DNA of 40,000 nucleotides from Planctomycetales bacterium (GCA_027451885.1 DAIDHX010000266.1:19452-59451), one strand, 5' to 3'; shown: positions 2,599 to 39,884, counted from the stretch's first letter. Made by a program: numbers and translations. Notes: generated by a model not told the origin, from the letters alone.

Positions 2599-2618
2599 CG
2601 CGACCGCCCGCCGCCTCC

Positions 2619-9334: not shown

Positions 9335-9556
9335 GGGGTCAATCTTCCGATCGCTGAGGAATGAGAGCCGGGCAAGCGGCAAGGCGCCGCGATCCATCGA
9401 TCCATTGTTCTGCTACTCCATGAAGATACGACGCCGCGAGCCTGACTGGGAAGACCAGCCGCCCTGGCCGCACCCCGCGCCTGGTTCCGCAAGCGGCCGG
9501 GTGCGGGTACGATGCCGGTTGTGAGTATGCAGCCACACAGAGAACGGAGCGGCTTG

Positions 9557-10510: not shown

Positions 10511-10530
10511 GGCTCACCCACTATATCATC

Positions 10531-12368: not shown

Positions 12369-12406
12369 TTCAGGCGGCTGCTCGCCCCAGCTTGGACCTA
12401 CTCTCC

Positions 12407-13675: not shown

Positions 13676-13680
13676 CGGTC

Positions 13681-16796: not shown

Positions 16797-18239
16797 TCAT
16801 GCCAGGATCGGCGTGATCAGCTCGCCGTGGACGTCGGTCAAGCGCATGTCGCGCCCGCCGAAGCGGTGTACGAGCCGCTTGTGATCGACCCCCAGCAGGT
16901 GCAGCATCGTGGCGTGCAGGTCATGGATTTCGACCTTGTTCTCGATGGCGTGATAGCCGTAGTCATCGGTCGCGCCGTGGATCACGCCCCCCTTGATCCC
17001 GCCGCCGGCAAGCCAGACCGTGAAGCCGTAGGGATTGTGATCGCGCCCGTCCGTTCCCTGCGCCATGGGAGTGCGCCCAAACTCGCCAGCCCAGAGCACA
17101 AGCGTGGAATCGAGCAGCCCGCGCGCCTTGAGATCCGTCAGCAGGCCGGCGATGGGCTGGTCAACGGCATGGGCGTTGCGCTCGTGGCCGACCTTGAGGC
17201 CGCCGTGCTGGTCCCAGCGGTCCGCACCCACGGCCGGGCAAAGCAGCTCAACGAAGCGCACTCCACGCTCGATGAGCCTGCGCGCCAGCAAACATTCCCG
17301 GGCGAAGATTTGCGTGGGCGGGAATGGATCGTCGAAGCCGTAAAGCGCGCGCGTTGAGCGAGATTCCTCGCGGATGTCCATGAGGTCTGGCACGGCGGTC
17401 TGCATGCGAAAGGCGAGCTCGGCGTTGGCGATCGCGGCCTCGACGGCGTCATGCGCGCCCACGCGGCCGAGGACTCCCTGGTCGAGCGCGCGCACAAGGT
17501 CGAGCTTGGTGCGCTGATCGGCCAGGGAGGGCTCACTGGGAGAAATATTGGCCACGGGTGCGCCCGTGGGCCGAAAGACCGAGCCCTGATAGGTCGCTGG
17601 CAAGAAACCGCTGCCGAAGCAATCGATACCACCGGGCGGGATCAGGCCGCCGTTCAGGACGACGAATCCTGGCAGGTCGCGCGACTCGCTCCCCAGGCCG
17701 TAAGTCACCCACGCGCCAGCGCTCGGGCGGCCCTGGAGTCCGCTGCCCGTGTGCAGGAAATAGTTCGCGGCCGTGTGCTCCGAGAAGTTGGAGACCATCG
17801 AGCGGATGATGGCCAGGTCGTCGACCATGCCGCCGACCCTGGGAAACAGGTCGGAGACGGGGATGCCGCTCGCGCCCCGGTTGCGGAACTTCCAGGGCGA
17901 GCCCAGCACATTGCCCACGTTGTTGAACTGGGTGGGGTGGGTCTTCACGGAGATCGGCTTGCCGTGCTCGCGCGTGAGCCTGGGCTTGGGATCGAACGTG
18001 TCCATCTGCGACGGGCCGCCGTCCATGAACAGAAAGATCACGTTGCGGGCGCGGGGCGGATGGTGGGGCAAGCCGGCTCGGCCGCTTGCGCCCGCGGGGC
18101 TGGGCGCTTCGCCGAGCATCTCGCCATGAGCCCTGTCGCTGAGAAGCGCGGCGAGCGCGAAGGCGCCAAAGCCATTGGCCGCGCGCAGCAAGAAATCCCT
18201 GCGCGTGGACCCGGGATCGAGATATCGGCGGCAGTGCAT
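16797..18239 (-). CDS. DUF1501 (sulfatase-like) protein with Tat signal
   Basis: Twin-arginine signal STRRDFLLRAANGFGAFALAAL. Canonical DUF1501 blocks NVIFLFMDGGPSQMDTFDPKP and DRWDQH, plus the C-terminal LHATMLHLLGVDH...RLTDVHG. Confidence 0.92.
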   Translation of the reverse strand: MHCRRYLDPGSTRRDFLLRAANGFGAFALAALLSDRAHGEMLGEAPSPAGASGRAGLPHHPPRARNVIFLFMDGGPSQMDTFDPKPRLTREHGKPISVKTHPTQFNNVGNVLGSPWKFRNRGASGIPVSDLFPRVGGMVDDLAIIRSMVSNFSEHTAANYFLHTGSGLQGRPSAGAWVTYGLGSESRDLPGFVVLNGGLIPPGGIDCFGSGFLPATYQGSVFRPTGAPVANISPSEPSLADQRTKLDLVRALDQGVLGRVGAHDAVEAAIANAELAFRMQTAVPDLMDIREESRSTRALYGFDDPFPPTQIFARECLLARRLIERGVRFVELLCPAVGADRWDQHGGLKVGHERNAHAVDQPIAGLLTDLKARGLLDSTLVLWAGEFGRTPMAQGTDGRDHNPYGFTVWLAGGGIKGGVIHGATDDYGYHAIENKVEIHDLHATMLHLLGVDHKRLVHRFGGRDMRLTDVHGELITPILA

Positions 18240-18258
18240 GCGACTGCTCCCTGGCGGC

Positions 18259-21200: not shown

Positions 21201-21354
21201 GCATGTCCTCGCCGCCGCGAACCGGACCACCCAGGAACGCGATCGCCAGCCCCAGCCAGGGTATCACCCTCGCCGCGAACCGCGGGACCTCGTTCACATT
21301 CCGGGACCTGATCGAGGCCATGATCTGCCGCCCCCGGATCCGCTCGCCTTGCAC
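18259..21354 (-). CDS. PSCyt1/PSCyt2(DUF1549)/PSD1(DUF1553) protein, planctomycete cytochrome-c-like
   Basis: N-terminal heme-like motif CLSCHDAARHKGGLRLDS (PSCyt1). The DUF1549 region carries NPIDRFL and the CARCHDHKFDPIT motif. The C-terminus ends LLNTKEFLFVP, typical of PSD1. It sits 19 nt upstream of the DUF1501 partner gene. An alternative start is ATG 21321. Confidence 0.92.
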   Translation of the reverse strand: MQGERIRGRQIMASIRSRNVNEVPRFAARVIPWLGLAIAFLGGPVRGGEDMPPRNPAAVEYFEKTIRPILATRCLSCHDAARHKGGLRLDSRAGAMAGGTSGPAVVPGKPEDSLLVDAINYGETYQMPPKSKLPASEVAVLTDWVKRGAPWGHDSGPVRSAAASGDRLNAEEFQARARFWSFQPVKRVQPPVTSRDSWARNPIDRFLLHALGTRNLAPAPEADRRTLIRRVTFDLIGLPPTPEEVAAFLADTRPDAYEQLIERLLASPHFGARQARHWLDLVRYAETAGHEFDYDIADAYRYRDYVTRALNLDIPYDRFVVEHLAGDLIATPRRRQGDGANESILATGFLYLGEGTHSPVDVREEEMRKIDNQIDVISKAFLGLTLACARCHDHKFDPITTRDYYALAGFLHGTRIQHAVIDAPEARAPAIRRAGQANHAAAALALADRTLLSGSLRQKLDAIAAPAKPGSTTNPTADAVLLDDFSRPTLDGWYRNGDAFCERTTRAGDLRLDWHGDTPVLAAVLPGTVQSNLVSNRLAGVIRSATFSIRARFLHVRARGQGGRIAVVIDNFEKIRDPIYGGLTRRIQHDDWRVETFDLDMWRGETAFLELSDGAVADFGNTTAPLDDANGYLAVDWIAASDRSPVSIQADPVEPSVDLNAVAAALAPVAPDRAKRLRERLADARLADQAIQPPRFALAAADGTPADEHVHIRGSHKNLGELVPRRFLQVLGGATEPTHEGAESRLDLAMRMVDPGTNPLLARVIANRLWRHHFGEGLVATPDDFGKMGRPPSHPELLDWLASELVASGWSLKHLHRLMVASSAYRMSSALDPGAESRDPGNVLLHRMNPRRLEAEAIRDAVLAVSGRLNTRMEGPSVHTHLDAFMEGRGRPAVSGPLDGAGRRTLYLNVRRNFLNPFLLAFDMPVPFAPMGKRNRSNVPAQALALLNDPFIKEQAGIWAMRTLSAPAASDRARLDRAYETAFARLPSEAEAALALGYLDARMGSNPTQAQAAWTDLCHALLNTKEFLFVP

Positions 21355-26006: not shown

Positions 26007-27524
26007 CTAGCGTCCCCGTGCCAGAATCTGGGCGCGCCAGAGGGCAAGCGTGTCGGCATCGGCGGCGGAGACGAAGGGTCTGGCCTGCTCGACGACGTCG
26101 AGTGCGCGTTCGATGGATTCTTCGGCCAGGGCGCGGCGGATTCCTGGCGCGACCGCGTGGTGGACATTGATGATGAGGGTTCCCTCGCTCGAGTCGCGTG
26201 CCCGCAACCGCTCAAAAAGCGCCCTGGCCATGCGCTCGGTGCGGCGATCGTCGCGCAGGCCCGCGGCTGAAGCCACAGCCTCCACCAGCCGGGGCGCATC
26301 GAGCCCGGCAAGATCGAGTGCATCGAGCTCAGCACCTGACGCACAGGCGAGATCGAGCGGATCGACCTGGTCCGGGTCGAGCACGGGCAGGCCCAGCCTG
26401 CGCCTGAGTCGATCGAAGGGATATCCCTCGTACAGCCCGGCCGCGGCGGGACGGGCCGCAAGCTGCTCACGAAAGCGAATCGCCGCCGCCAGCCGTATCC
26501 GCGTGAATGCATCGTCCCGAGCGGCCGCTTCGAGCGGCGTTGCGCCTGAAAGGCTCACGCGCGGGACGTGGATCCACTGATCCTCGAAGTAATGCTCGAT
26601 TCGTTCGCGCCTGAGGATCGCCGCCTGGTCGGGCTCAATCTCACCTTCAATGCGGAACATCCACACCGCCGCGTCCAGGAAGGCGAGCGGCAGCGGCCGA
26701 GCTTCGCGGCTGGCACGTTCGCAGTCGAGCTCGAGCCGCTCGACAAGCATCTCCTCAGCCAGCTCGAGCCGCTCGCGCGCGGGGCTCGACAGCCGCAGTG
26801 CACCACCACCAAGAAACACCGTGGCAAGCTGGTCGCGCGCGATCCCGGCCGCAGCCGCGGACTCATCGGGAATCGATTCCAGCCAGATGCAGGCGCGGAC
26901 GTCCGCGCGCTCACCCACCGCCGCCTCGGCCGAGTGCGGCAGGTCCGCCGCCTTGATCTGCGGAAATGTCTCCAGCAGCCGCTCGGTCAGATCGGGTTTC
27001 CACGGGATCGAAAAGGAATACTGCAAATCGTCCGCCAGCTCTTCCGCGCCCGCTCCCTGGCGCAGGACCGCGGCCAGAATCCACGCCTCCTGCGCGCGCT
27101 CAGGCTCGTGCGCGGAGTCGAGCGCGACCGAGCGTTCCAGGCTACGCACCGCAAGTGCATTCTCCCCCTGCCAGGCCAAAAGAACCGCCCGGTTGAACCA
27201 GCAGGCCGGGTCCGCGGGAAAGCGCTCGCAGAGCGATGCGTAATACCCGGTCGCTTGCTCCAGATCGCCCAGGTCGACAGCCGCCTGGGCACGCGCCTGT
27301 GTTCCCAGCTCACGCAGCCGAGGAACAGCGAGCGCGGCGGCCGGCAGCTCGCGCGACCGTTCCAGGATCTCGAGCGCCTGCAAAGCCGCCCTGGATTCAG
27401 GCTCAAGCGCGCACGCCTGGCGGAACGACGACCACGCCGCCAGCGGGCGCTCCAGCCGCAAATGCGCCCACCCCGCATGCACCAGCCGGGTCACGCGATC
27501 GTCTCTTGCCTGTTCGTCAGTCAT
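26007..27524 (-). CDS. TPR-repeat protein with uncharacterised C-terminal domain
   Basis: Only the C-terminal ~506 aa of the 823-aa ORF are credible. The upstream part is antisense to the fucosidase gene. TPR-like helices include AWSSFRQACALEPESRAALQAL, ATGYYASLCERFPADPACWFNRAVLLAWQG and ALAVRSLERSVALD. The start is ATG 27524 or 27545. Confidence 0.62.
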   Translation of the reverse strand: MTDEQARDDRVTRLVHAGWAHLRLERPLAAWSSFRQACALEPESRAALQALEILERSRELPAAALAVPRLRELGTQARAQAAVDLGDLEQATGYYASLCERFPADPACWFNRAVLLAWQGENALAVRSLERSVALDSAHEPERAQEAWILAAVLRQGAGAEELADDLQYSFSIPWKPDLTERLLETFPQIKAADLPHSAEAAVGERADVRACIWLESIPDESAAAAGIARDQLATVFLGGGALRLSSPARERLELAEEMLVERLELDCERASREARPLPLAFLDAAVWMFRIEGEIEPDQAAILRRERIEHYFEDQWIHVPRVSLSGATPLEAAARDDAFTRIRLAAAIRFREQLAARPAAAGLYEGYPFDRLRRRLGLPVLDPDQVDPLDLACASGAELDALDLAGLDAPRLVEAVASAAGLRDDRRTERMARALFERLRARDSSEGTLIINVHHAVAPGIRRALAEESIERALDVVEQARPFVSAADADTLALWRAQILARGR

Positions 27525-27701
27525 GCACTCGGCCCGCCGTCCCATGATGGTGAAATCCCGCGCAGTCACTTTCCCGTAAACCCAGCGCGGCGTCCACTCC
27601 GCTCGCCCCCCGATGCGCTTGACAGCATCCCGCACGCAAACGCATCGTGAGAGGCGCGCCAATTGATCCGTCCAGATCTCCGCGCTGCCAAAGGAGGGCC
27701 C

Positions 27702-29048
27702 ATGTCCAGAGCCGCGATGCAAATCCGCTCGCTGACACTTCTCGGAATCGCCACCCTGAGCGCGTTTGCAATTCCCACCCCCGCACACGCGGGCGAACCA
27801 ACCCCGAATCGCGAAGCCCGTGCCTGGTTCCAGGACGCCAGGCTCGGCCTGTTCGTGCACTGGGGTGTCTACTCCCTGCTCGAGAAAGGGGAGTGGGTCA
27901 TGGAACACGACAGGCTGCCGATCAGCGAATACGCCAAGCTCCCTCCCCGTTTCACCGCCAGCAAGTTCGACGCTCAGGCCTGGGTGGCGCTCGCAAAAGC
28001 CGCGGGCGCGCGCTATCTCACCGTCACCGCCAAGCATCACGATGGCTTCTGCATGTTCGATAGCGCACTCACCGATTACGACGTCGTCGATTCCACACCA
28101 TTTCATACCGACCCGATCAAGGCGCTCGCGGAAGCCTGCCGCCAGCAAGACGTGAAGCTCTTTCTCTACTACTCGCTGCTTGATTGGCACCACCCCGACT
28201 ACGACCCTCGCGGCAAGACCGGGCACTTCGCCGGCCGGCAGCTCAAGGGAACCTGGAAGCATTACGTCGCCTACTACCAGGGGCAGGTGCGCGAGCTCTG
28301 CACCCGGTATGGCGCGATCGGGGGCATCTGGTTCGACGGCGAGTGGGACCGCCCCGGCGCCGACTGGGACCTCGCCGGCACCTACCGCATGATCCACGAG
28401 CTCCAGCCCCACGCGCTTGTCGCCAATAACCACCACGCCGCTCCCTTGCCCGGCGAAGACTTTCAGATCTTTGAACAAGACCTCCCCGGTGAAAACAAGG
28501 CCGGATTCAACAAGGCCCGAATCCAGCCTGGATTACCTCTCGAGACCTGCCTGACCATCAACTCGTCGTGGGGCTACAACGCCGCCGATGAGAACTACAA
28601 AAGCGTTTCCGACCTCGTCCACGCGCTGGCACGCGCCTCCGGCCGAGGCGCGAACCTGCTCCTGAACGTCGGTCCGCTGCCGGACGGCAGCATCAGCGCA
28701 ACCTCGGTGACACGCCTGCGCGAGCTCGGCCAATGGCTCACCGCGCACGAGGAATCCATCCGAGGCACCCACGCCGGGCCGATCCCCGAAAAGCCCTGGG
28801 GCGTCTCGACCGCCAGGGGGCCCGTGGACCATCCGACTGCCATCTATCTGCACGTCTTCCACCCTGGCCCCGATACGCCCATCGTCCTCGATCGCAACAC
28901 CCCCTGGCAGCCCCGCCTGCTCGGCCGCTCCGTTCTGCTGGAAACCCGCGCAACAAAGTCCGGCGCGGAAATCGTGATCCCCGATGACATCCGCGACCCC
29001 ATCGACACCGTCATCATGCTCGAGCCGAAACCCGCGGCGAACCGCTAG
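27702..29048 (+). CDS. Alpha-L-fucosidase (GH29)
   Basis: ATG 27702 is preceded by AAGGAGGG, and the product begins with a signal peptide (MSRAAMQIRSLTLLGIATLSAFAIPTPAHA). GH29 core: FGLFVHWGVYS, GARYLTVTAKHHDGFCMFDS, FLYYSLLDWHHPDY, GGIWFDGEW. Confidence 0.92.
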   Translation: MSRAAMQIRSLTLLGIATLSAFAIPTPAHAGEPTPNREARAWFQDARLGLFVHWGVYSLLEKGEWVMEHDRLPISEYAKLPPRFTASKFDAQAWVALAKAAGARYLTVTAKHHDGFCMFDSALTDYDVVDSTPFHTDPIKALAEACRQQDVKLFLYYSLLDWHHPDYDPRGKTGHFAGRQLKGTWKHYVAYYQGQVRELCTRYGAIGGIWFDGEWDRPGADWDLAGTYRMIHELQPHALVANNHHAAPLPGEDFQIFEQDLPGENKAGFNKARIQPGLPLETCLTINSSWGYNAADENYKSVSDLVHALARASGRGANLLLNVGPLPDGSISATSVTRLRELGQWLTAHEESIRGTHAGPIPEKPWGVSTARGPVDHPTAIYLHVFHPGPDTPIVLDRNTPWQPRLLGRSVLLETRATKSGAEIVIPDDIRDPIDTVIMLEPKPAANR

Positions 29049-29332
29049 TCCCAGAGCTCGGCCCGTGTAAGCAGGGCATGATGCGAATCAGTCTCCATGT
29101 TCCCGCGTTATCAATGAACGCATGCTCGTTTCTATAACATAATATCCATGACCGTGATTTGTGTACGGTATTGCCTTGCGAACGATTCGCGAATGTGTTG
29201 GAGTTGAGAAAGCTGGGGCCGGGCGTACGCAAGCTCGTCCCGGTTCGCGGCAGGTCGGCGCTCCCAGCCGGCGACGATTGTCGGGCGCAGCGCGGGGGGT
29301 CGACGGCAATCCCTCTCGTCGCGAGGCGGACC

Positions 29333-31288
29333 ATGTCCCCTGCTCTCACCCCGGTTCAGGAATCTCCTGCCGAAATACAGCCAGCCGGCTTTACTCCCTC
29401 GGTCAACGATCTGGCGATCAAGGTTGGCACGGTCAATGGCTCGGGGAGCCAGTCGGCCAACCTGGCCATTCTTCGCGCCCTGTATTCCATGGGCATCCCG
29501 TGCAGCGGCAAGAACGTCTTCCCCTCGAACATCGAGGGGTTGCCGACCTGGTTCCACCTCCGGGCAAGCGCACAAGGGTACGTCGGCCACGTGCTCGACC
29601 CCAGGATCCTCATTTGCATGAACGAGGCCACTGCGCGCGACGACGTGCTCGCGCTCAGGCCAGGCGCGCTTTGCGTTTATCGCGACGACTTCGATCTCGA
29701 CCCGCGCACGCTCCGCGGCGACATCCAATTCTTCCCGGTGCCGTTCTTGAAGCTCGTGCAAGAAGCCTATCCGCCGGATAAAACCGACAAGCTGTACCGT
29801 GACAGGCTCCGCAAGGTCGTCAACATGGTCTACGTCGGGGTGCTGGCCTCGATGTGCCAAATTGAGATGGAGGCGATCGAGTGGGGCATTCGCCGCGAGT
29901 TCCCCGGGCGCAAGGCCAGGGCCGGCGAGGTGAACATCAACGCGGCCGCAGCCGGGTTTCGCTGGGCCGAGGCCAGCTTGCCCCCGGAACGACCCTACAC
30001 GGTCGCGCGAATTCCGGGCTCCTGGAACAAGATTCTGATCGAGGGCAACAAGGCCGCTGCGCTCGGCGTGCTCTTCGGCGGCGCGAGCGTGCTCACCTGG
30101 TACCCAATCACGCCTTCGAGCAGCCTGGCCGAATATGCGGAAGACTTCCTCAAACACCATCGAGTCGACGCGAACGGTAAGTGCAGCTTTGCGATTGTGC
30201 AGGCGGAGGACGAGCTGGCCGCGATCGGCATGGCCGTTGGCGCGGGCTGGGCAGGCGCCCGGGCGCTCACCGCGACCTCCGGCCCCGGCACGTCGCTCAT
30301 GGCCGAATTCGTTGGGCTCGCATACTTCGCCGAGATCCCCGTCGTCATCATCGACGTTCAGCGCATGGGGCCTTCCACTGGCCTGCCCACCCGCACCAGC
30401 CAGGGAGACGTGCTCAAGCTGCATATGCTCGGTCACGGCGATTGCAGACATCTCGTGCTCCTGCCCGGTTCCGTCGAGGAATGTTACAGCTTCACCATCG
30501 AATCGCTCGACCTGGCGCAGCGGTTCCAGACGCCCGTCTTCATGGCCAGCGACCTTGACCTGGGCATGAATCTCTGGCTCACCGACCCGTTTCGCTACCC
30601 TGACCGCCCCCTCGCACGCGGCAAGGTGCTCACGAAGGAAGATCTCGACCGCCTCGGACGTTTCGAGCGCTATCGCGACGCCGATGGCGACGGCGTTTGC
30701 GAGCGCACCTTGCCTGGCACCGAGCACCCCCTGGCCGCGTACTTCACCCGCGGCACCGGCCATAACGAAAAGTCGGGCTACAGCGAACGGCCCGACGACT
30801 GGAAACGAAACCTCGATCGGCTCGCACGCAAGCTCCAAACAGCCCGCCCGCAGCTCCCCGCTCCCGTCGTTGACGACAATCCCCACGCCAGGGTCGGGCT
30901 CATCGCGTATGGCGGCACGCACTACGCTCTCGTCGAAGCGCGTGACCTGCTCGCGGCCGAGGGAATCGAGACCAGTTACTGCCGCGTGCGCGCCTTGCCG
31001 CTCGCCGACGCCGTGTTCCAGTTCATCGAGCGCCATGAACGCGTCTACGTCGTCGAGCAAAACCGCGACGCGCAGCTCCAAACCCTGCTGCACGCGGAGC
31101 TTTGCGGGACGCTCGCGAACCGGCTGATCCCCGTCAACCACTACAACGGCACGCCCATCGCCGCCGAGAACATCGTCCGCCCAATCCTGGCACGGGAACA
31201 GAGCCCGTGCACATCCGGCTGGCCCGTCGCTGAGAGCGCTCATGAAATCGACCGTGCGCATCCTTCGTGCGAGCCCTCCACTGAATGA
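29333..31288 (+). CDS. korA: 2-oxoacid:ferredoxin (acceptor) oxidoreductase, fused gamma-alpha subunit
   Basis: N-terminal gamma-domain pattern IKVGTVNGSGSQSANLAILRALYSMGIPCSGKNVFPSNIEG, followed by alpha-domain GAALGVLFGGASVLTWYPITPSS and LTATSGPGTSLMAEF. Start at ATG 29333 (651 aa). The 722-aa minus-strand ORF opposite it is a shadow ORF. Confidence 0.9.
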   Translation: MSPALTPVQESPAEIQPAGFTPSVNDLAIKVGTVNGSGSQSANLAILRALYSMGIPCSGKNVFPSNIEGLPTWFHLRASAQGYVGHVLDPRILICMNEATARDDVLALRPGALCVYRDDFDLDPRTLRGDIQFFPVPFLKLVQEAYPPDKTDKLYRDRLRKVVNMVYVGVLASMCQIEMEAIEWGIRREFPGRKARAGEVNINAAAAGFRWAEASLPPERPYTVARIPGSWNKILIEGNKAAALGVLFGGASVLTWYPITPSSSLAEYAEDFLKHHRVDANGKCSFAIVQAEDELAAIGMAVGAGWAGARALTATSGPGTSLMAEFVGLAYFAEIPVVIIDVQRMGPSTGLPTRTSQGDVLKLHMLGHGDCRHLVLLPGSVEECYSFTIESLDLAQRFQTPVFMASDLDLGMNLWLTDPFRYPDRPLARGKVLTKEDLDRLGRFERYRDADGDGVCERTLPGTEHPLAAYFTRGTGHNEKSGYSERPDDWKRNLDRLARKLQTARPQLPAPVVDDNPHARVGLIAYGGTHYALVEARDLLAAEGIETSYCRVRALPLADAVFQFIERHERVYVVEQNRDAQLQTLLHAELCGTLANRLIPVNHYNGTPIAAENIVRPILAREQSPCTSGWPVAESAHEIDRAHPSCEPSTE

Positions 31289-31331
31289 CACACCGCACAA
31301 GCAATTCGATCACTGGTAACGCGAGGAAGCC

Positions 31332-32404: not shown

Positions 32405-34741
32405 TCATTTCGGATGACTGGGCACGTGATCCTTCGCCACGCGAAGGTCGCACGTGGGCGGCACGTCGAGCTTGCGGATCGGATTGGCCAGCACGCGATC
32501 GCCCTCCCGCAGACCCTCCAGAATCTCGCTGATGCCGCTCCCAGAATCGCCGAGCTTCACCGCCCGCCATTCCAGCTCGCCGTCTCCCTTCCGCACCGCG
32601 ACCTGATAACCACCACCGTCATCGCCCACTGAATCGACCGCGGTGCGCGGAACCGCGAGCGCGCGTTTCTTGCGCAGGACGATCGACGCCTGGACCTTTT
32701 GACCCGGCCGGAACTTCGCCGGCGGCTTCTCGATCGCAATCGTGGTTGAATAGAACTTTCGCTTGTCCGAAAATATGTTGGTCGGATCAGGCACTGGCGC
32801 AATCTCAGAAACATGCCCGGTCGTTCGAAAGATACCCTCCCGTTGCTGGATCTCAAGCTCCACAGCGTTCGATTCGTGAACCTGCCTAACAGCGTATTCC
32901 GGCAGCTTCACCTTCACGACCGGGGGAGCATGGTCAACATCCTGAATAAACGCGATGATCTGCCGCTCACGGACAGTCGCTCCCTGGGCGATGTTGATCT
33001 TGCTCGGCCGATCGGGATCGTTGGCGTGGACCACAATCCCATCGCCAGGGGAGGTGACCTTGCACGCCTCGACCTGAGCCAGCAGTTTCTTTTCCCGGGC
33101 GCTCTCGATTTCGAGCGCACTCTGGCGGGTGATCTCGTCCCCGCGCGCTTTTCGGACCGCTGCCTCCAGCTCCCTGATCTTCCTGGGTCGCAGAATCTTC
33201 TCGAATTCGTCCTTCTTGATCTGAGCCTGCTCGTGCGCCAGCCTGTTCAGGTCGTGTTCCTTTCGAGCCTGTTCCAGACTGGCGCCGATCTCGACCGCGG
33301 CCTTGAGCTCCGCGAGCGTGGCCTGCCGATCCCGCCCGCCAATCAATCCCTGCGCCTGGCCCTCGATTTCCGAGACACGATCGAGCCACGCCTTGCTGCT
33401 ATCCATGATCCGCCTGGCCTGCTGGGCTCGAGCATCCAGGAGATGCTGCTCGTTCCTTGCCAGCGATTCCTGATAGTCCGCCAGTGCTCGCTCGGCGGTC
33501 TCGCGCGAAAGCCGAGCGCTGGCGAACCCAGCCTCGGCGGAACGGGCCCGCGCGCTTTGGGGCGTAAGCCTTTCCCTGAGCGGCCTGGCGTCCAGCCGTG
33601 CCACCACATCACCCTGCTTCACGCGAGTCCCTTCCTCGATCAGCCAGAGGATCCGATTCGTCCCTTCGACCCCGGATTGGGCGTATCTCGTTCGCCCCGC
33701 CGCGAGGTTCCCGGTCAGGTCGAGCCGCTGTTCAAGCCCTGTCATCTCCACGGTCACAAACAGGGGAATCCCATCGGCCTGTGGGGTCTTGCCCCCCGGC
33801 TTCGCAGCCTTCGTGGTTTGCTCATCGCGCCCGGTCAGGGCTCGACCCGGCGTATGATCAGGACCAGGTTTCTGAACTCCACCGATCGCAATCAAGCCAC
33901 CCGCGCCGACGCCCACGCCGAGACAGAGGATCGATCCAGCAACTGCAATCTTGCAAAGCCTTGTGATCGTCATGGACGTGAGGACTCCTCGCGCGAGCGC
34001 GGCGGCCGCACCGCCGGCAAGCGCCTTCGCTCTCGATTGCTGGAGCATGGCCTGAACAGCCGCCTGCGCAAGCGCAACAGGCACGCTCGAGCTAGATCCA
34101 GGGGGCAGGATCAGACCCTGCCCTGGCCCCGGCTCAAAACCTCGCCGTTTCAGACGCTCGCCCAGCCGCTGCCGCGCTCGCGATAGCCGGCTCTTGACCG
34201 TCCCCATCGGCCATCCGAGATTTCGCGACGCTTGCTCATGAGAACAACCTTCAAGATCACAAAGCACCACGGCCGCGCGCAGCCGCTCGGGCAACCGCGC
34301 GATCTCCTCGTGGACGATCGCGCAAAGCTCGTCAGCCGGCTCGGCTACGGTGTCAGTGGCAATCCGAGCAGCCAGGCGCTCATGGCGCCGCCGCCTCGCC
34401 GCCGTCGTTCGTGCGTGCATCGCGGTGCGCCTCGCAACCTCGAACAGCCACGGCCCGAGCGACTCGCGCGCCCAGAGCCCTCGCGCCTTGCGCAGCAAGA
34501 TGAGAAATGTCGCCTGAAACGCATCGTGTGCGTCGGCTTCGTCGTCGAGTACACTCTTGCAAACGCGCAAAACCAGCGGCCCATGGCGCTCGACCAGAAC
34601 GCCAAAGGCCGCCTCCGCCGCGTCGCCATCCTCTTGCGAGAAACGCTCGAGAAGCTGGCCGTCGCTCAGCTCGCGCACCACCCCCACGCTGAAGAGCGTG
34701 TGGATCGGCCTCAGAACCGCGCCCCGATTCGGTTTCCCCAT
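32405..34741 (-). CDS. Fusion protein: ECF (group 4) sigma-70 factor + single TM helix + HlyD-family periplasmic adaptor (membrane fusion protein) module
   Basis: Residues ~1-200 carry sigma region 2 (DAFQATFLILLRKARGLW...WLFEVARRTA) and a region 4 HTH (LPERLRAAVVLCDLEGCSHEQASRNLGWPMGTVKSRLSRARQRL). A TM helix follows (ITRLCKIAVAGSILCLGVGVGAGGLIAIG). Then come a lipoyl half (KQGDVVARLD), a long coiled coil, SPGDGIVV, a beta-barrel, and the C-terminal VKLGDSGSGISEILEGLREGDRV. GGAG lies 9 nt upstream of ATG 34741. Confidence 0.85.
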   Translation of the reverse strand: MGKPNRGAVLRPIHTLFSVGVVRELSDGQLLERFSQEDGDAAEAAFGVLVERHGPLVLRVCKSVLDDEADAHDAFQATFLILLRKARGLWARESLGPWLFEVARRTAMHARTTAARRRRHERLAARIATDTVAEPADELCAIVHEEIARLPERLRAAVVLCDLEGCSHEQASRNLGWPMGTVKSRLSRARQRLGERLKRRGFEPGPGQGLILPPGSSSSVPVALAQAAVQAMLQQSRAKALAGGAAAALARGVLTSMTITRLCKIAVAGSILCLGVGVGAGGLIAIGGVQKPGPDHTPGRALTGRDEQTTKAAKPGGKTPQADGIPLFVTVEMTGLEQRLDLTGNLAAGRTRYAQSGVEGTNRILWLIEEGTRVKQGDVVARLDARPLRERLTPQSARARSAEAGFASARLSRETAERALADYQESLARNEQHLLDARAQQARRIMDSSKAWLDRVSEIEGQAQGLIGGRDRQATLAELKAAVEIGASLEQARKEHDLNRLAHEQAQIKKDEFEKILRPRKIRELEAAVRKARGDEITRQSALEIESAREKKLLAQVEACKVTSPGDGIVVHANDPDRPSKINIAQGATVRERQIIAFIQDVDHAPPVVKVKLPEYAVRQVHESNAVELEIQQREGIFRTTGHVSEIAPVPDPTNIFSDKRKFYSTTIAIEKPPAKFRPGQKVQASIVLRKKRALAVPRTAVDSVGDDGGGYQVAVRKGDGELEWRAVKLGDSGSGISEILEGLREGDRVLANPIRKLDVPPTCDLRVAKDHVPSHPK

Positions 34742-34782
34742 CGCGTTGCTCCGCCGCTATTCGCCCTTGTGCCTCAAACGAC

Positions 34783-34823
34783 GGATAATGCCGCGCAGAG
34801 CCCCAGCGGTTCCAATTTTTTTT
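34783..34823 (-). promoter_or_regulatory. Candidate ECF-type (autoregulatory?) promoter upstream of the first sigma-HlyD gene
   Basis: Minus-strand reading: AAAAAAAATTGGAAC-N12-GCGCGGCATTATCC. The TGGAAC (34814-34809) and the 14-mer (34796-34783) are identical and identically spaced at 37143-37179, upstream of the paralog. GGAAC is the classical ECF -35 core. Confidence 0.45.
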
Positions 34824-34853
34824 GCAAGCAAGCCAAAATCATCGCTGGCAGCT

Positions 34854-37085
34854 TCACTGCATCCCAGCCGGCTGGTGCGCGATCGGGTACTCCGGCTCGG
34901 CATCCACCAGTACCGACTCGCCCACCTCGAGACCCTTTTTGACTTCCACCTCACCGACGCTCATCCGGCCCAGCTCCACCGTCCGGATCTCTACCCCTCC
35001 ACCCCGCTTTCGCACCAAAACCCAGGGCTCATTGTTCCTGCCCTTGCCCCTGTAGACCGCCGTGAGCGGAACACTCAATGTATTTTCAGATTCTGCTGTA
35101 ATAATCTTTACACCGGTTGAGTCGCCCGCCTTCAGGGTGAGGCCCGCTGGAAGGCGCTCGAATGGAAGGCGCTCGAACTCGATCATGACAGTATAGAGCA
35201 TCTCATCCCCTACCAGGTTTAGCGGCGAGAGCGCCTTGACTCGCCCCTCGACATGAAGGCCTCCGCCAGTCTCGACCAGCGCCCGCATCCCGGGCAGGAC
35301 TTCCTTGATCACGGACCGACGCGCCTGAACTGCCAGTTTCACTGCGCCCGGCTTGTGAACTTGCAGAATCGGACGGCCGGGGGGAACAACCGCACCCAGC
35401 ATCGGGGGGATCCCCGGTGAGTAGACCACCACCCCCTCGGCTGTCGCCCGCACAAGCGCGTTCTCAACCGCGCGTTTGCGGCGATCGAGCTCGCTTTGAA
35501 GCTGATTGACGTTCTCGTCTGCCCGCCGTACCACCTCCTGGGCTGCCGCGGCCTTGAGAGTCAGCTCCGCGACCGCGCGTGGGGCTGCGAACCGAGCATG
35601 GGCGGATTTTTTGGCCTTCAACTGCCTGAGCTCGATCTGATCCTGCGCGAGTGCGCGCCGCGCATCGACCGCGCGATCATTGATGTCGAGCAGTGACGCG
35701 ATTTCAACAGCCGAATCGAGCGACCTGCCCTCAACCTTTTTCTGCGCAGCCTCGACACGCTTGAGCCTCCCCTCGTCATCCTGAATCGCGGTCTCGGCTG
35801 CGCGGATTCTTGCATCGAAATCCGCCTCTTCCACCGTCGCGTTCTCGCGGGCTTCCGCCACCGCCAGCTCGGCAGACTTGAGAGCCGCGATGACCTTTTG
35901 CCGGTCAGCTCTTGATTCGTTGAGATTGATCTCGGCCTTCGTGACCAGATCGCGCTGACCCGACGCGTCGAGCTCGAAGAGAAGATCCCCCGGTTTCACA
36001 AGCGAACCGTCGGGCGCCAGCTTGAGGAATCGAGATCCGGTGTCGAGAGAGGAACGCACCACCTGGAGCACGACCGGAACGAATACTCCCTGAACCTCAA
36101 CCCGCAACTGGAACGTGCGAGGAACCAGCGTCAGCCAGCCGGGCTCGTTTTCCACGGCGTCCGCGGGCTTCTGCTGGGCGGGTTTCTGCTGGGCGGGCGC
36201 GTTCGGCGCCGCAGGCCCGTCCGGGGTGCGGCGCTGGGCGACTGCCGAGAGGCTAGTCATGCCGAGCCCGAGCAAGGCCACGGCGGCAACCTTGGCCAAA
36301 GAATGTAAGCTCATGGACGTGAGAACTCCTTGTGCAAGTGTGGCGGCAGCGCCGCCGGTCAGCGACTTGATCGAGGATTGATCGACAACGACTTCCACAG
36401 TGGCAGCCAGCAAGTGGGCGGGCATGGCGGCCGAGCCCGCTCCTGGATCGCCCAGGAGCACAAGACCCAGCTCCTGGCCATATCCAAGCTTGAGCAAGCG
36501 CGCACGCAGCCGTTCCCGAGCCCGGGAGAGCCGGCTCTTGGCCGTACCCACAGGGACACCCAGGCGCCTGGCGGCGTCTTCCTGGCTCAAGCCCTCCAGA
36601 TCGCAAAGCACGATGATGGAGCGAAACCGGTCGGGCAAGCGCGCGATCTCCTGATGGATGAGCGCAAGTCCGTCGCGACTCGCTTCCGTGCGCGCTTCGG
36701 GCCGCTCGCGTGCCGCTGCCTGTTCGTGCTTCTGTCTCCGCGCGTGCTTTGAGCGCGCATGGAGAGCAGTTCTGCGCGCAACCTGGAATAGCCAGGGACC
36801 AAGCGTTTCCCGGGTCCAGAGCGAGCGGCTTTTCCGCAATAGAATCAGGAACGTCGCCTGGAACGCATCCTGCGCGTCGCTTGCGTCGTGAAGTACGCCG
36901 CGGCACACGCGCAGGACCATCGGTCCATGCCGCTCGACAAGCGCCGAGAACGCTTGCCGGGCGATCTCATTCGAGCCGCTCGCGAACCGCTCCAGGAGTT
37001 GACCATCGGAAAGTCCGCGCGTCACTCCCAGGCGATAAAGCGACTCCAGGTCGCGCAAAACCGAGCCCCGGCCCTGGCTCGACAT
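34854..37085 (-). CDS. Fusion protein, paralog of 32405..34741: ECF sigma factor + TM helix + HlyD-family adaptor module
   Basis: The architecture is the same, and the sigma part is roughly 60% identical by eye (SDGQLLERF, VERHGPMVLRVC, DAFQATFLILLRK, GPWLFQVARRTA, VLCDLEGLSQEDAARRLGVPVGTAKSRLSRARERL). The TM helix is SLHSLAKVAAVALLGLGMTSLSAV. The HlyD part includes KPGDLLFELD, a coiled coil, ATAEGVVVYSPG and VELGRMSVGEVEVKKGLEVGESV. Start set at ATG 37085 (MSSQGRG...), which aligns with the paralog N-terminus and has GGGGAGG 8 nt upstream. The ORF is open to 37190. Confidence 0.85.
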   Translation of the reverse strand: MSSQGRGSVLRDLESLYRLGVTRGLSDGQLLERFASGSNEIARQAFSALVERHGPMVLRVCRGVLHDASDAQDAFQATFLILLRKSRSLWTRETLGPWLFQVARRTALHARSKHARRQKHEQAAARERPEARTEASRDGLALIHQEIARLPDRFRSIIVLCDLEGLSQEDAARRLGVPVGTAKSRLSRARERLRARLLKLGYGQELGLVLLGDPGAGSAAMPAHLLAATVEVVVDQSSIKSLTGGAAATLAQGVLTSMSLHSLAKVAAVALLGLGMTSLSAVAQRRTPDGPAAPNAPAQQKPAQQKPADAVENEPGWLTLVPRTFQLRVEVQGVFVPVVLQVVRSSLDTGSRFLKLAPDGSLVKPGDLLFELDASGQRDLVTKAEINLNESRADRQKVIAALKSAELAVAEARENATVEEADFDARIRAAETAIQDDEGRLKRVEAAQKKVEGRSLDSAVEIASLLDINDRAVDARRALAQDQIELRQLKAKKSAHARFAAPRAVAELTLKAAAAQEVVRRADENVNQLQSELDRRKRAVENALVRATAEGVVVYSPGIPPMLGAVVPPGRPILQVHKPGAVKLAVQARRSVIKEVLPGMRALVETGGGLHVEGRVKALSPLNLVGDEMLYTVMIEFERLPFERLPAGLTLKAGDSTGVKIITAESENTLSVPLTAVYRGKGRNNEPWVLVRKRGGGVEIRTVELGRMSVGEVEVKKGLEVGESVLVDAEPEYPIAHQPAGMQ
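35148..35177 (-). repeat. Perfect 15-bp in-frame tandem duplication inside the second sigma-HlyD gene
   Basis: TGGAAGGCGCTCGAA occurs at 35148-35162 and again at 35163-35177. On the minus strand this encodes FERLP-FERLP. Confidence 0.9.
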
Positions 37086-37142
37086 GGCGTTTACCTCCCC
37101 TCCACTCTCGCGGAAATCTCCCAAACCACGATGCCTCTCCCT

Positions 37143-37179
37143 GGATAATGCCGCGCCAGGGGCCGCGAGTTCCATTTTT
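37143..37179 (-). promoter_or_regulatory. Candidate ECF-type promoter upstream of the second sigma-HlyD gene
   Basis: Minus-strand reading: AAAAATGGAAC-N12-GCGCGGCATTATCC. TGGAAC lies at 37174-37169 and the 14-mer at 37156-37143. Spacing and sequence match the 34783-34823 site. It sits 58 nt upstream of ATG 37085. Confidence 0.45.
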
Positions 37180-37211
37180 GACCGAACCATTGCCTGCTCG
37201 CACGCCAGGTG

Positions 37212-38387
37212 CTACCGCCTACTCGCGCGGGAGTCGACCGCCACCACATCGCCGTCCTTCAGGCCCGCCTTGATCTCGACCCGGTCCTGACTCGTGAGAC
37301 CAGGGATCACCGGGCCATCCTCGATCGATCCCTTTGAGACCCGTACCCGAACGCACACCGATCCCGTCGAACTGCCGGAGCGGATGAGTGCTGCCTTCGG
37401 CACCGTGAGCACGTCGTTCAACTGCGCTGCCACGATGGCGGCCTGCACTCTCATCCCCGGCCGGAGCGCGGCAGGACGGCCATCGACCTCGACGATCGCG
37501 GTATAGTCAGGGCTTGCCAGCCCAGATAAACCGGACCTGCGCACAGGCGCAAGCGGCTGGACCGTGCCCTGACCCGCGTGTTCTGCCACGCCTGCCTGCT
37601 GAAGAACGGCCTTCGTTCCGGGCACAACCCCCTCGAGGTCGGAATCGGCCACCGTGCAAGTCATCCGAAGCGGCCCGTTCGCAGGATCGATCATCGCGAA
37701 CACAAGCTGGCCCTCGGCCAGGCGCGAACCCACATGAATCCCCGGCGCGGAATCCGAGAGCGAATCCGCATAAACGACCATGCCGTCGCACGGAGCAACC
37801 AGATTGGCGCCATCGAGTTTTCGCTTGAGACAACGTTCTTTCATGTGTGCACGCTCCAAATCCGCCTTGCGCTTGAGCTCCTCCGCGCGCTTTCTCAAGA
37901 TCCGCCTTCAGAGCCTGGATTCTGGCCCGACTTGTATACTGCTCGAGAATCCGCTTCTTCCCTTTCAACTGCTCCAGCCTGACCCGCGATTCCTGGAGCT
38001 TCGTATTCAGGGAGTCGACGCGTTCCTCCACTGAAAATGTGGCAGCAATTTCCGTGGGTGTCTGCACGACACCGGCCTTGAGCGCGTTGCGGACGACAGT
38101 TAGGCCCTTGCCAGCCTCATCAAGCCGGTCCTCGTTGTATCTGGCCCACTCGGCGGCCTGCTTTTCCTCGTTCGCGATCGCGCTGCGTCGATGACGAGCG
38201 TTCCCGGTTCGTACTCAAGGAGGTCGATCTCGGTGATTTCTCGGTTGAGCTGGGCATTCCTCGAAGCCACGGATGCGGACTGGGCGTCGATCGTTGCATG
38301 CGAAGTGAGCACGGATTCCTGGTGAGGCAGCGAGTCCGGGTCGTGGAATTGTCTCGCGCTCCGATCCTGCGTGCCAGATTCCAGCAC
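37212..38387 (-). pseudogene. Degraded HlyD-family adaptor gene: 5'-truncated (no sigma, TM or first beta domain) and broken by at least two frameshifts
   Basis: Three consecutive minus-strand ORF pieces lie in different frames and together read like one adaptor. Piece 1, 38387-38100: ...SVASRNAQLNREITEIDLLEYEPG. Piece 2 is a frame open from ~38210 to 37507: NEEKQAAEWARYNEDRLDEAGKGL...TKLQESRVRLEQLKGKKRILEQYTSRARIQALKADLEKAR. Piece 3, 37898-37212: AEELKRKADLERAH...LVAPCDGMVVYADS...beta-barrel...VEIKAGLKDGDVV. The shifts map near 38180 and near 37890, the latter in a GCGCGCGG run. Confidence 0.6.
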
Positions 38388-38402: not shown

Positions 38403-39884
38403 CTAGAGTTCCCAGAGCCGGCGGCCCTTGAGGAACATGGTCAGGTAGCCGTCCTCGCTGACCTTGAGAACGGGGCCGTGGAGCGAAGCCGCCTGACCGG
38501 CGAGGGTGCGCGCTCCCTGGAACGCGCGGCCAAGCTCGAGCGCCTCGGGCGCGATGCGCAGAATCGCGCCGAAGGTGAGCAGCCTGCCGTTCTGATCCAC
38601 GACCACCGCGCCATCGAGGCTTGCAATGGATTCGAGCACCGCCGGCGCGATCTCGGACAACTTTCGCCCGCGGACAACATGGTGCAGCGCTCGCTTGGCG
38701 TGCCGGGGCGAGAGATTCTCCGGATCCTCGGGATCGTCGAACGCTTCCTCGGCGGCAATCTGGTCGACAGGCGCGATGAGCTCGGGAACCGACTCCTCCG
38801 GGTCGCGCAGAACCACGAAAAGCGCTCCCGTGCGCGCCTCGCCCAGATTGAGCGCAGCCTCAAAGAGAGTGTCAGCAAGACCAGGCCAGCCGGTGGTTCC
38901 AATCGCTTCCTTCCAGACAGCGAACTTGCTCGGGATATCGAGCAAGCGCCAGCGGGCGTCGCTATAGCTGAACATCATGGTTCCCCGCGCGAAGACCTTG
39001 ATCTCCTGCGCGGGGGTGAGCACGGCCACAACGTGCCCCCCGGCCCGCGTGGCCTTGGCGTGGCTGACATATACCCGGGGACAAGGATGTTCAAGAGGCT
39101 CAGTGCCTTGCACCTCGTTCGCCCAGCTCGCGATGTCAATCATGCGTATCAGGTCGCCCTGGCGATCAACCAGAAAGACCGTCCGCACGCCGTCGCAAAG
39201 CCGGTGGAATCCCTTGATCCCCGTGAGACGGGCGTTGAACATCGGCGCGCCTTTGCGATCACCCGGAATCAGACCCGGAATCTGATCCTCTGTTCCCAGC
39301 AAGAGCGCGCCCGTGGAGACCCGGCGGTTCTCATACGTCGAAAGTGCCGCAACACGAAGCGCCTCGATCGCCGCCGGCAGACGATACGAATCGACCGTGT
39401 CCAGATAGTCGGCGACGATCAGGTCTTCGTTGGGATAGTGAAACCGGTCAAAGCGATGGGCCAGTTCCTGGTTGAACAGGCCGCGAAAGCGAATGTCGAT
39501 CGCACGCACGACGACCTCGATCATCCTCCGCTCGGTTGCAAGCAAGGGAGAAGCCGTGCCCGGCAGGAACGAGAGACGCGAGCCCAGCCACTCGATCTCA
39601 ACCCCGACCCCGTCGGAGTATTCATGCAGCCGGTAGTAGGTCTCGTCCGAGGAGAGATCCCAATCGATGAAGCTCCGATCACCCAGGAATTCCAGGCGTG
39701 CGTCAGGAAAGAAGTGCTCAAGCGCGCGGCGGAGCACCATCTGGTAAACGCCAACCACACGCGAGATCGGCGGTGGCTGACGATCCGGTCGGGCAGGATC
39801 GCTGGCGGCATGAAAATGATCGGGTTCCTGGACGCTGGCGATAGGTTCCCGCATCGATCGCTTGCTCCCGATCTCCAGACCCAT
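38403..39884 (-). CDS. Hypothetical protein with two tandem DisA_N (diadenylate cyclase)-like domains, catalytic motifs degenerate
   Basis: The 493-aa ORF has clean coding character. The C-terminal ~150 aa follow the DAC-domain order as I recall it from CdaA/DisA. TGALFVVLRD corresponds to GALIVIER, LDGAVVVDQNGRLLTFGAIL to HDGAVII...AA, QGARTLAGQAAS to GTRHRAA, and LKVSEDGYLTMF to IVVSEETG.IS. The middle region repeats the pattern more weakly (STGALLLG; CDGVRTVFLVDRQGDLIRMIDI; SHAKATRAGGHVVAVLTPAQEIKVF). An alternative start is ATG 39854, with GGGAG 10 nt upstream. Confidence 0.5.
   Translation of the reverse strand: MGLEIGSKRSMREPIASVQEPDHFHAASDPARPDRQPPPISRVVGVYQMVLRRALEHFFPDARLEFLGDRSFIDWDLSSDETYYRLHEYSDGVGVEIEWLGSRLSFLPGTASPLLATERRMIEVVVRAIDIRFRGLFNQELAHRFDRFHYPNEDLIVADYLDTVDSYRLPAAIEALRVAALSTYENRRVSTGALLLGTEDQIPGLIPGDRKGAPMFNARLTGIKGFHRLCDGVRTVFLVDRQGDLIRMIDIASWANEVQGTEPLEHPCPRVYVSHAKATRAGGHVVAVLTPAQEIKVFARGTMMFSYSDARWRLLDIPSKFAVWKEAIGTTGWPGLADTLFEAALNLGEARTGALFVVLRDPEESVPELIAPVDQIAAEEAFDDPEDPENLSPRHAKRALHHVVRGRKLSEIAPAVLESIASLDGAVVVDQNGRLLTFGAILRIAPEALELGRAFQGARTLAGQAASLHGPVLKVSEDGYLTMFLKGRRLWEL

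Follow-up and report, generated by a model that had tools for sequence, protein, structure and literature searches.

Planctomycetes encode dozens of extracytoplasmic function (ECF) sigma factors per genome, and we know of no member of their long-tailed ECF group that has been studied experimentally. ECF57, formerly handled under ECF01-Gob (PMC7826278; PMC8999054), comprises planctomycete sigma factors extended by WD40-like repeats, with two conserved cysteines proposed to link σ2 to σ4, as exemplified in Singulisphaera, an isosphaerad (PMC8999054). Planctomycete genomes carry 5.3 copies on average (Casas-Pastor et al., 2021; PMC7826278). Duplicated planctomycete ECF sigma factors gain unrelated C-terminal extensions by insertion (Pinto and da Fonseca, 2020; PMC7671368). 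Two further systems combine a sigma factor with an extracytoplasmic part: IutY of Pseudomonas putida, an ECF243 sigma/anti-sigma hybrid, is freed by Prc and RseP and becomes constitutively active upon truncation, and in SCO4117 of Streptomyces coelicolor (ECF52) a Pro-rich spacer in the periplasm leads to the sensor domain (PMC8999054). Here, we analyzed 40,000 nucleotides of a Planctomycetales bacterium (GCA_027451885.1 DAIDHX010000266.1:19452-59451; the whole stretch is hereafter called the window), which contain the planctomycete marker genes PSCyt1/2, PSD1, DUF1501, and DUF1559. An open reading frame (ORF) scan found an array of three related units, two of them intact, on the minus strand at 32405-38378. 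Each intact gene encodes an ECF sigma factor that is joined, through a single predicted transmembrane (TM) segment, to a fold known from the periplasmic adaptors of efflux pumps. The intact genes and the parts of their products, including regions taken from an AlphaFold2 (AF2) model and its predicted local distance difference test (pLDDT) scores, are as follows.

32405-34741, minus strand: copy 1, sigma-TM-adaptor gene of 778 aa (ORF, Pfam and NCBIfam matches, AF2 model, homologues)
34142-34684, minus strand: copy 1 ECF sigma core, residues 20-200, with σ2, a short linker, and σ4 (Pfam, pLDDT 82-95)
33971-34141, minus strand: copy 1 cytoplasmic linker, residues 201-257, with a variable stretch, a helix at 222-237, and the juxtamembrane block GGAAAALARGVLTSM
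33872-33970, minus strand: copy 1 single Gly/Ala-rich TM segment, residues 258-290 (Kyte-Doolittle, predicted helix)
33761-33871, minus strand: copy 1 periplasmic Pro/Ala/Lys-rich spacer, residues 291-327, of variable length and predicted to be disordered (alignment, pLDDT <50)
32474-33760, minus strand: copy 1 MacA/AcrA-like adaptor ectodomain, residues 328-756 (AF2, Foldseek, profile, TIGR01730)
34854-37085, minus strand: copy 2, sigma-TM-adaptor gene of 743 aa, identical to the database protein P0163
36486-37028, minus strand: copy 2 sigma region, residues ~20-200
36234-36326, minus strand: copy 2 TM segment, residues 254-284
34893-36137, minus strand: copy 2 adaptor, residues ~317-731

Both proteins contain Sigma70_r2 (43.7 and 46.3 bits in copies 1 and 2, respectively; cut-off 24) and Sigma70_r4_2 (56.8 and 60.6 bits; cut-off 25.7), which are located at residues 49-116 and 142-193 of copy 1, and both match the TIGR02937 sigma70-ECF family (68.8 and 82.1 bits; cut-off 42.9). 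Neither region 3 nor region 1.1 was found in either protein by the Pfam and NCBIfam scan, and both proteins are therefore ECF (group 4) sigma factors, comprising σ2 and σ4 only. The C-terminal ~450 aa match the TIGR01730 RND_mfp family (1e-24 and 7e-21), with 86.9 and 74.6 bits, under the curated cut-off of 94.9, and HlyD_3 reaches 25.0 bits in copy 1 (above the cut-off of 22.2) and 15.6 bits in copy 2 (below it). Overall identity between the copies is 36%, with far greater similarity in the sigma halves than in the tails. A previous reading of this stretch, made from the sequence only (hereafter the sequence-only reading), had proposed two adjoining minus-strand genes of 778 and 743 aa, each with sigma regions 2 and 4, and the present scan recovers the same ORFs and domains. 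The longest ORF at copy 2 (34854-37190) would also give 778 aa; however, the promoter motif described below falls inside its 5′-extension, and the start at 37190 was rejected. The true start is the ATG at 37085, because the family alignment begins there, a GGAGG ribosome-binding site lies upstream of it, the protein called in the database (P0163) has 743 aa, and the promoter lies within the extension of the longer ORF. Each protein has one Gly/Ala-rich hydrophobic segment, at residues 258-290 of copy 1 and 254-284 of copy 2; in copy 1, 19-residue Kyte-Doolittle windows exceed 1.6 nowhere else. Since a sigma factor is necessarily cytoplasmic and each protein has a single membrane segment, the adaptor part is predicted to be periplasmic, which agrees with the topology proposed in the sequence-only reading.

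The structure of copy 1 was modeled with AF2 on a 50-sequence family alignment (mean pLDDT 76.9). In the model, the sigma core (~20-200) is confident; residues 205-325 are of low confidence, a short helix spanning 222-240 and a long, hydrophobic one 246-273, and the ectodomain (328-756) has a pLDDT of mostly 84-98. The ectodomain consists, in order, of β-strands (lipoyl), a hairpin whose two helices (386-468 and 476-559) are each ~83 residues long, further strands, a β-barrel, and a C-terminal membrane-proximal domain. A hairpin of this length presumably falls in the EmrA/HlyD length class. Foldseek aligned the model over 430-494 columns to AcrA, MacA, MexA, TMexC, ZneB, and EmrA (E = 1e-20 to 1e-15), the match with the lowest root-mean-square deviation (rmsd) being EmrA at 6.8 Å. 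The family sequence profile matched Escherichia coli MacA best (3e-31), ECF sigma structures being matched as well, and the precomputed Pfam domains on relatives include Beta-barrel_YknX, YknX_C, Beta-barrel_RND_2, and CzcB_C. As judged from these models and profiles, the four-domain periplasmic adaptor fold (lipoyl, α-hairpin, β-barrel, and membrane-proximal domains) is present, and the full adaptor domain order that had been read from the C-terminal ~500 aa is borne out by AF2, Foldseek, and the MacA match alike. In profile searches, this part matches models of the membrane fusion protein (MFP)/HlyD superfamily, with HlyD_3 above its cut-off in copy 1 and below it in copy 2, TIGR01730 just below in both, and MacA at 3e-31. 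The fusion proteins thus resemble MacA, YknX, AcrA, and EmrA in the fold and order of the four domains and, as in MacA, in an N-terminal membrane helix; they differ from them in the ~200-residue N-terminal sigma factor and in a disordered spacer of 40-60 residues after the TM segment. Whether the linker serves in cis as an anti-sigma factor was probed in two ways. A second AF2 run, on a deeper alignment of mixed composition, raised the pLDDT of the linker and juxtamembrane/TM helices to 72-93, the linker helix (222-237) scoring 72-81 and the second helix running unbroken from 245 to 279. When the sigma model was compared with known sigma structures by Foldseek, the TM-scores were 0.41-0.53 for anti-sigma-bound and 0.30-0.46 for RNA polymerase-bound forms, with a high rmsd throughout, which did not tell the closed from the open form.

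A search of 5.8 billion protein clusters (90% identity), in which 8000 candidates were scored, gave 1297 matches at E ≤ 1e-5. The best 120 of these 1297 score at least 455 bits and are 696-850 aa in length, except for one of 667 aa covering 54% of the query; sigma domains are present in all 120, and a precomputed adaptor-type Pfam domain in each of them other than the window protein. The homologues of the fusion therefore amount to at least 120 clusters at 90% identity, which derive from NCBI, ENA, JGI, and Logan assemblies, and the few with names belong to the Isosphaerales, including Tundrisphaera lichenicola (complete genome). They are labeled “sigma-70 family RNA polymerase sigma factor” at NCBI and “HlyD family secretion protein” or “RND family efflux transporter MFP subunit” at JGI. 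In a library clustered at 50% identity, 13,717 representatives matched at E ≤ 1e-30, and ~50 among the top 150 listed align end to end; in the local set, 165 of the 215 proteins having a sigma region score more than 100 bits with the adaptor profile. A frameshift or a missed stop might in principle have joined separate sigma and adaptor genes. Such an assembly or sequencing artefact, in favor of which nothing was found, was rejected and is hardly conceivable, because the window has the uninterrupted fusion in two copies and at least 120 independent sequences, complete genomes among them, show it as well; the check for a frameshift or stop that had been proposed along with the sequence-only reading is answered by the same unbroken architecture.

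The N-terminal part of the fusion is not peculiar to it. Residues 1 to ~290 recur at ~45-57% identity in proteins of 440-800 aa with other tails, which appear from about rank 85 of the matches in the library clustered at 50% identity and were assigned by Pfam as follows.

P0215: WD40 tail
P0208: PD40 tail
P0194 and P0195: TPR tails
P0205: AhpC-TSA (thioredoxin-like) tail
P0261: Poly_export/SLBB (Wza-like) tail
P0253: CARDB/DUF11 tail
P0236: FG-GAP tail

Aligned over their first 340 residues, 17 mixed-tail proteins share a conserved σ4 end (“RL..L.RRG..P”), a helix (“vP..L...T”), the juxtamembrane “L..GV...M....L”, and the hydrophobic span. In the alignment of the fusions, M257 of the juxtamembrane block is invariant and L249, A250, and V253 are at least 90% conserved. 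The block that the sequence-only reading had singled out as shared by the two copies is consequently real and conserved; it is, however, a property of the whole superfamily with its unrelated ectodomains and is not specific to the adaptor proteins. The adaptor is, on these sequence comparisons, one ectodomain among many on a shared sigma-linker-TM module, and this modularity suggests that the N-terminal module carries the transduction and the ectodomain the input. In two metagenome-assembled genomes labeled Planctomycetaceae, the same module is followed by a ~500-residue tail (L001, 9860-12406; L002, 9521-12358) with a common conserved block (GTVI.S.PEESL, AHTFKV) and a β-rich C-terminal part, which may represent another ectodomain class.

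Like members of ECF57, the fusion proteins are planctomycete, multi-copy, and equipped with a long C-terminal extension, with no anti-sigma gene nearby and with a cysteine in both σ2 and σ4: C61 is at least 90% conserved and C161 invariant in the fusion-family and mixed-ectodomain alignments alike. Across residues 1-290, they are ~50% identical to sigma-TM-WD40 proteins such as P0215. They differ in that the tail is a complete MacA-like adaptor, whereas the ECF57 extension prevalently consists of WD40-like repeats. The fusion proteins fit a branch of the known ECF57-like group, an assignment made from shared features and ~50% identity to sigma-WD40 proteins. The suggestion that they form an undescribed class is not supported: the module is ~50% identical to that of WD40- and TPR-tailed proteins and has the ECF57-type cysteines, and a single-polypeptide sigma-TM-periplasmic protein is already known experimentally in IutY (PMC8999054). 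What appears to be new is the adaptor as the ectodomain, for which no description as an adaptor or HlyD tail on an ECF sigma factor was found in the ECF literature searchable here, together with the promoter GGAAC-N18-CATTAY and the size and conservation of the branch. IutY and SCO4117 share with the fusions the arrangement of a cytoplasmic ECF sigma factor, a membrane span, and an outer sensor part in one polypeptide, in the absence of a separate anti-sigma factor; SCO4117 also has the Pro-rich spacer past the membrane, and IutY is the nearest precedent with experimental support. In contrast, both have a FecR-like or zinc-finger anti-sigma domain between σ4 and the membrane, which is not detectable here, their ectodomains are FecR-type or carbohydrate-binding and not adaptors, and the sigma groups are unrelated.

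The adaptor tail might be an evolutionary passenger, acquired when a duplicate of the sigma module inserted at the 5′-end of an adaptor gene and serving at most for anchoring or oligomerisation, with no part in sensing. Such an origin would accord with the unrelated extensions that recent planctomycete ECF duplicates take up by insertion (PMC7671368), and the array itself bears signs of turnover. The sequence-only reading had described two paralogs; both stand as intact genes, but a third, decayed member adjoins copy 2, as detected with the family profile, TIGR01730 (2e-16), and tblastn.

37221-38378, minus strand: third copy, a pseudogene reduced to the adaptor part (profile positions 352-735), with two frameshifts
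38378-38165, minus strand: first pseudogene piece, profile positions 352-420 (E 1e-6)
38205-37880, minus strand: second piece, profile positions 408-516 (E 1e-13)
37901-37221, minus strand: third piece, profile positions 511-735 (E 1e-42)

The three pieces are collinear and alternate between two reading frames; nothing is left of the sigma region, linker, TM segment, and first lipoyl half, and the remnant sits directly after the stop of a DAC-like gene (ending at 38403). By its sequence, 37221-38378 is a 5′-truncated pseudogene with two frameshifts. A positional orthologue of copy 1 occurs in loci L019 and L020 beside the same fucosidase, TPR, apiosidase, and PSCyt block, where a second copy is absent, and locus L023 holds a tandem pair of sigma-adaptor genes of its own; copy 2 is highly diverged, its nearest relative in the sigma region being at most 63% identical in the local set. 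Judging from these comparisons, the array is in flux, as a passenger tail would allow. The pattern of conservation argues the other way. The top-residue frequency in the fusion alignment is 0.85-0.86 in the sigma domains and ~0.6 in the adaptor domains, and the least conserved and most gapped columns are those of the spacer (residues 281-327; 0.27, with 36% gaps). Throughout the ectodomain there are invariant or near-invariant residues, for example in the consensus stretches (AREVAE.A..EY.EG, APxDGxVVYANDP, IEEGATVRERQ, VAPLPDP, KVYTT, LRPGM, and EWR). In a neighbor analysis of the sigma regions, on a sample chosen by similarity to copy 1 and hence biased, another fusion is nearest to 160 of the 165 fusions, with a mean identity of 0.70 within the class and 0.63 to others. 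A neutral tail is disfavored because of these conserved ectodomain positions and because sigma sequence and tail type co-segregate, and the fusion has been kept in at least 120 clusters at 90% identity and at least ~50 full-length clusters at 50%; we consider a passenger very improbable.

A promoter-like motif was derived from the 260 nt upstream of nine fusion genes. It reads TGGAAC-N18-CATTA(C/T), ends 44-60 nt ahead of the start codon in eight of the nine upstream regions, and is preceded by A-rich tracts in several; the second gene of the L023 tandem pair has only a degenerate version. The sites in the window are as follows.

34786-34813, minus strand: copy 1 promoter-like site GGAAC-N18-CATTA, ending 44 nt before the ATG
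37146-37173, minus strand: copy 2 promoter-like site GGAAC-N18-CATTA, ending 60 nt before the ATG at 37085

These are the only two exact matches in the window, in which ~0.04 would be expected and in which none of 100 shuffles reached two, and a one-mismatch scan of the window yielded no further sites. The exact motif occurs once per locus in L017-L023, at the same position (six independent loci, as L019 and L020 carry the same protein); it is absent from 16 other loci and is found nowhere else in ~0.5 Mb. When relaxed to GGAAC-N18-NAYTAY, the motif has 14 sites in 509 kb, nine of which are the fusion-gene sites and three of which precede sister sigma genes with a different tail (L001, L002, and L004) and read GGAAC-N18-GACTAY. 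GGAAC is the classic −35 element of ECF promoters. Upstream of its own gene, the motif is the expected signature of positive autoregulation, to which it points here, and the −10 element would be expected to distinguish the subgroups (CATTAY versus GACTAY). Both window promoters have GCGCGGCATTATCC in common, and cross-activation between the copies is likely because the two promoters are near-identical.

A feasible model may be that the ECF57-like sigma factor is held in the cytoplasm by the linker, the juxtamembrane helix, and the one Gly/Ala-rich TM segment, which join it to the periplasmic MacA-like fold, and that the tether and ectodomain keep it inactive at the membrane. The ectodomain would sense a change, the candidate inputs being its oligomerisation, the binding of a ligand, or an interaction with a partner in the envelope, upon which the exposed Pro-rich spacer would be cleaved and an intramembrane cut by a site-2 protease would follow. 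The released sigma factor would bind GGAAC-N18-CATTAY ahead of its own gene, giving positive feedback, would presumably act on targets elsewhere in the genome, and the two copies would activate one another. A Gly/Ala-rich, helix-destabilising TM segment and a disordered Pro-rich spacer, as predicted from sequence and model, are compatible with site-1 and site-2 cleavage. A membrane-tethered sigma factor freed by regulated proteolysis, with the adaptor ectodomain as its sensor, is the reading we tentatively prefer, at somewhat short of an even chance. It had been put forward in the sequence-only reading and is the best supported; architecture, fold, family size, common N-terminal module, promoter motif, and the absence of neighboring pumps are observed here, while the inactivity, the release, and the sensing are parts that we infer.

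Several points weigh against regulated release. No Pfam or NCBIfam match to an anti-sigma domain was found in residues 200-260, between σ4 and the TM segment, where AF2 places only one ~16-residue helix and the juxtamembrane helix, and AF2 does not dock the linker confidently on the sigma factor (pLDDT <50 there in the first model, higher in the second). Promoter targets beyond the sigma genes themselves were not found with the exact and relaxed motifs in the window and 23 loci. For ECF57, partner binding and a Cys-mediated conformational switch, rather than proteolysis, have been proposed (PMC8999054). A pump partner could also be encoded apart from the fusion, as adaptors such as that of AcrAD-TolC sit apart from their pumps (PMC8277102), and proteolysis, topology, and activity are predictions for all members of the family. 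The conserved C61 and C161 bear on a related possibility, namely that the sigma factor acts while still anchored, either by recruiting RNA polymerase to the membrane in the manner of ToxR/CadC or through a Cys- or metal-dependent σ2-σ4 switch driven by the ectodomain; a Cys link between σ2 and σ4 has been proposed for ECF57 (PMC8999054), and the ~58-residue cytoplasmic linker, with ~20 poorly conserved, low-confidence residues, would be compatible with it. However, a tethered sigma factor of this kind is not described in the reviews consulted, and a single TM segment followed by a disordered spacer of 40-60 residues is a poor conduit for a conformational signal. Action without release is, in our view, quite improbable.

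Proteolytic release of the tethered sigma factor, the reading preferred here, must also be set against a role of the ectodomain as a working adaptor. The fusion could serve a MacB-type, major facilitator superfamily (MFS), or resistance-nodulation-division (RND) transporter encoded elsewhere and form a hexamer reaching the outer-membrane channel, the sigma factor reporting pump assembly or substrate load and its promoter targets including the pump genes. All four adaptor domains are intact and conserved, MacA is matched best at the sequence level (3e-31), Pfam domains of the YknX type occur on relatives, the hairpin is of great length with EmrA as the best fold match by rmsd (6.8 Å), and adaptor genes can be unlinked from those of their pumps, as in AcrAD-TolC (PMC8277102). 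However, neither an exporter (ATP-binding cassette (ABC)/MacB, RND, or MFS) nor an outer-membrane factor adjoins the fusion gene in the window or in eight other contexts (loci L017, L018, L019/L020, L021, L022, and L023 and the P0025 contig), the neighborhoods of which are otherwise variable. The hairpin tip of canonical adaptors carries a conserved RLS docking motif (PMC8277102). In the fusions, the tip (469-475) is the least conserved adaptor segment (0.35 versus ~0.6) and variable in length, and the pattern R-x3-L-x6-S was not seen by inspection of its consensus (RLERTR.AR..L, a variable loop, TP.DI); in these respects, as in the absence of an adjacent transporter gene in the nine contexts and in a TIGR01730 score below the cut-off, the proteins depart from MacA, YknX, AcrA, and EmrA. 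In addition, sister proteins bear ectodomains unrelated to pumps on the same module, and the promoter motif precedes no pump gene in ~0.5 Mb. A working adaptor is unlikely, albeit the most probable of the alternatives. The more specific form of this idea, in which the fused adaptor is part of an export machine encoded elsewhere and the six sigma factors of each pump are released or retained by transporter or channel assembly or by substrate load, is distinctly unlikely; if true, transcription would respond directly to the physical condition of a machine spanning the envelope, which has not been described for any tripartite pump.

The surroundings of the array were surveyed as well. Among the window ORFs scanned, there is neither an anti-sigma gene nor an efflux pump, as the sequence-only reading had stated, and this observation extends to the eight homologous contexts, no separate anti-sigma gene being found in any of the nine. 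The flanks, previously named as korAB and a DAC-like gene, consist of 2-oxoacid:ferredoxin oxidoreductase alpha and beta genes and a gene with a weak DAC domain. The latter (38403-39884, minus strand; 493 aa) matches DAC only at the threshold (27.1 bits versus the cut-off of 27) in its last 150 residues, and its first ~340 residues are without a match. DacZ_P/DAC genes, accompanied by an RbsD_FucU gene, recur in L018 (19779-20396) and L023 (21541-22280) at a distance of 8-9 kb from the sigma-adaptor genes, which may reflect either synteny or a functional link. In L021 (5300-8595), L022 (5002-8405), and L023 (5311-8927), a Sigma70_ECF gene and a Ser/Thr kinase-TPR gene of ~900-1000 aa, of the kinase-associated planctomycete ECF type, are located 1-5 kb from the sigma-adaptor gene. 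An unrelated MatE gene lies upstream of the fusion gene in L017.

The only ABC genes in the window stand at 128-3956 (minus strand), where an L-rhamnose isomerase gene is followed by those of a double-ATPase ABC protein and a BPD_transp_2 permease; they were rejected as an export partner because they encode a sugar importer. At 16797-21354 (minus strand), a PSCyt1/PSCyt2/PSD1 protein (1031 aa) and a DUF1501 protein (480 aa) are encoded, and the same pair occurs near homologues (L019 and the P0025 contig); as an RND pump with its outer-membrane factor, the pair was rejected, the resemblance being one of size only. A cluster at 9512-16426 is of the tetrahydromethanopterin-linked C1 metabolism/cofactor type and comprises methenyl-H4MPT cyclohydrolase (MCH), RimK-like ATP-grasp, CitG-like, PTPS, His_biosynth-fold, Hydantoinase_A, and amino-acid-kinase-fold genes. 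A TPR ORF of 823 aa (26007-28478, minus strand) overlaps a fucosidase gene (27663-29048, plus strand) by ~800 nt, and because of this overlap its real start is probably further downstream; the syntenic TPR protein of L019 has 567 aa. A 722-aa ORF (29132-31300, minus strand) was rejected as a gene, being a GC-rich antisense shadow of the whole oxidoreductase alpha gene.

Other sigma systems provide partial parallels. In SigI/RsgI of Clostridium thermocellum, paralogous sigma systems differ mainly in the extracytoplasmic sensing module, as the planctomycete proteins do; there, however, the sensor is a separate anti-sigma protein, whereas here the putative sensor is fused to the sigma factor. Pro-sigmaK of Bacillus is likewise a membrane-associated sigma precursor, activated by the site-2 protease SpoIVFB, but the part removed is a short N-terminal pro-sequence. 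A shared module that takes very different ectodomains predicts that the ectodomains can be swapped, and the defined promoter of the fusion genes offers a ready reporter and a route to the regulon in complete genomes. The adaptor branch raises the question of whether the fold can serve in sensing or whether RNA polymerase receives its signal straight from a pump. Should the sigma factor be released by proteolysis, the family would provide many natural examples of bacterial transcription factors tethered to the membrane, similar to SREBP or ATF6, and would supply orthogonal transmembrane switches made of one protein.

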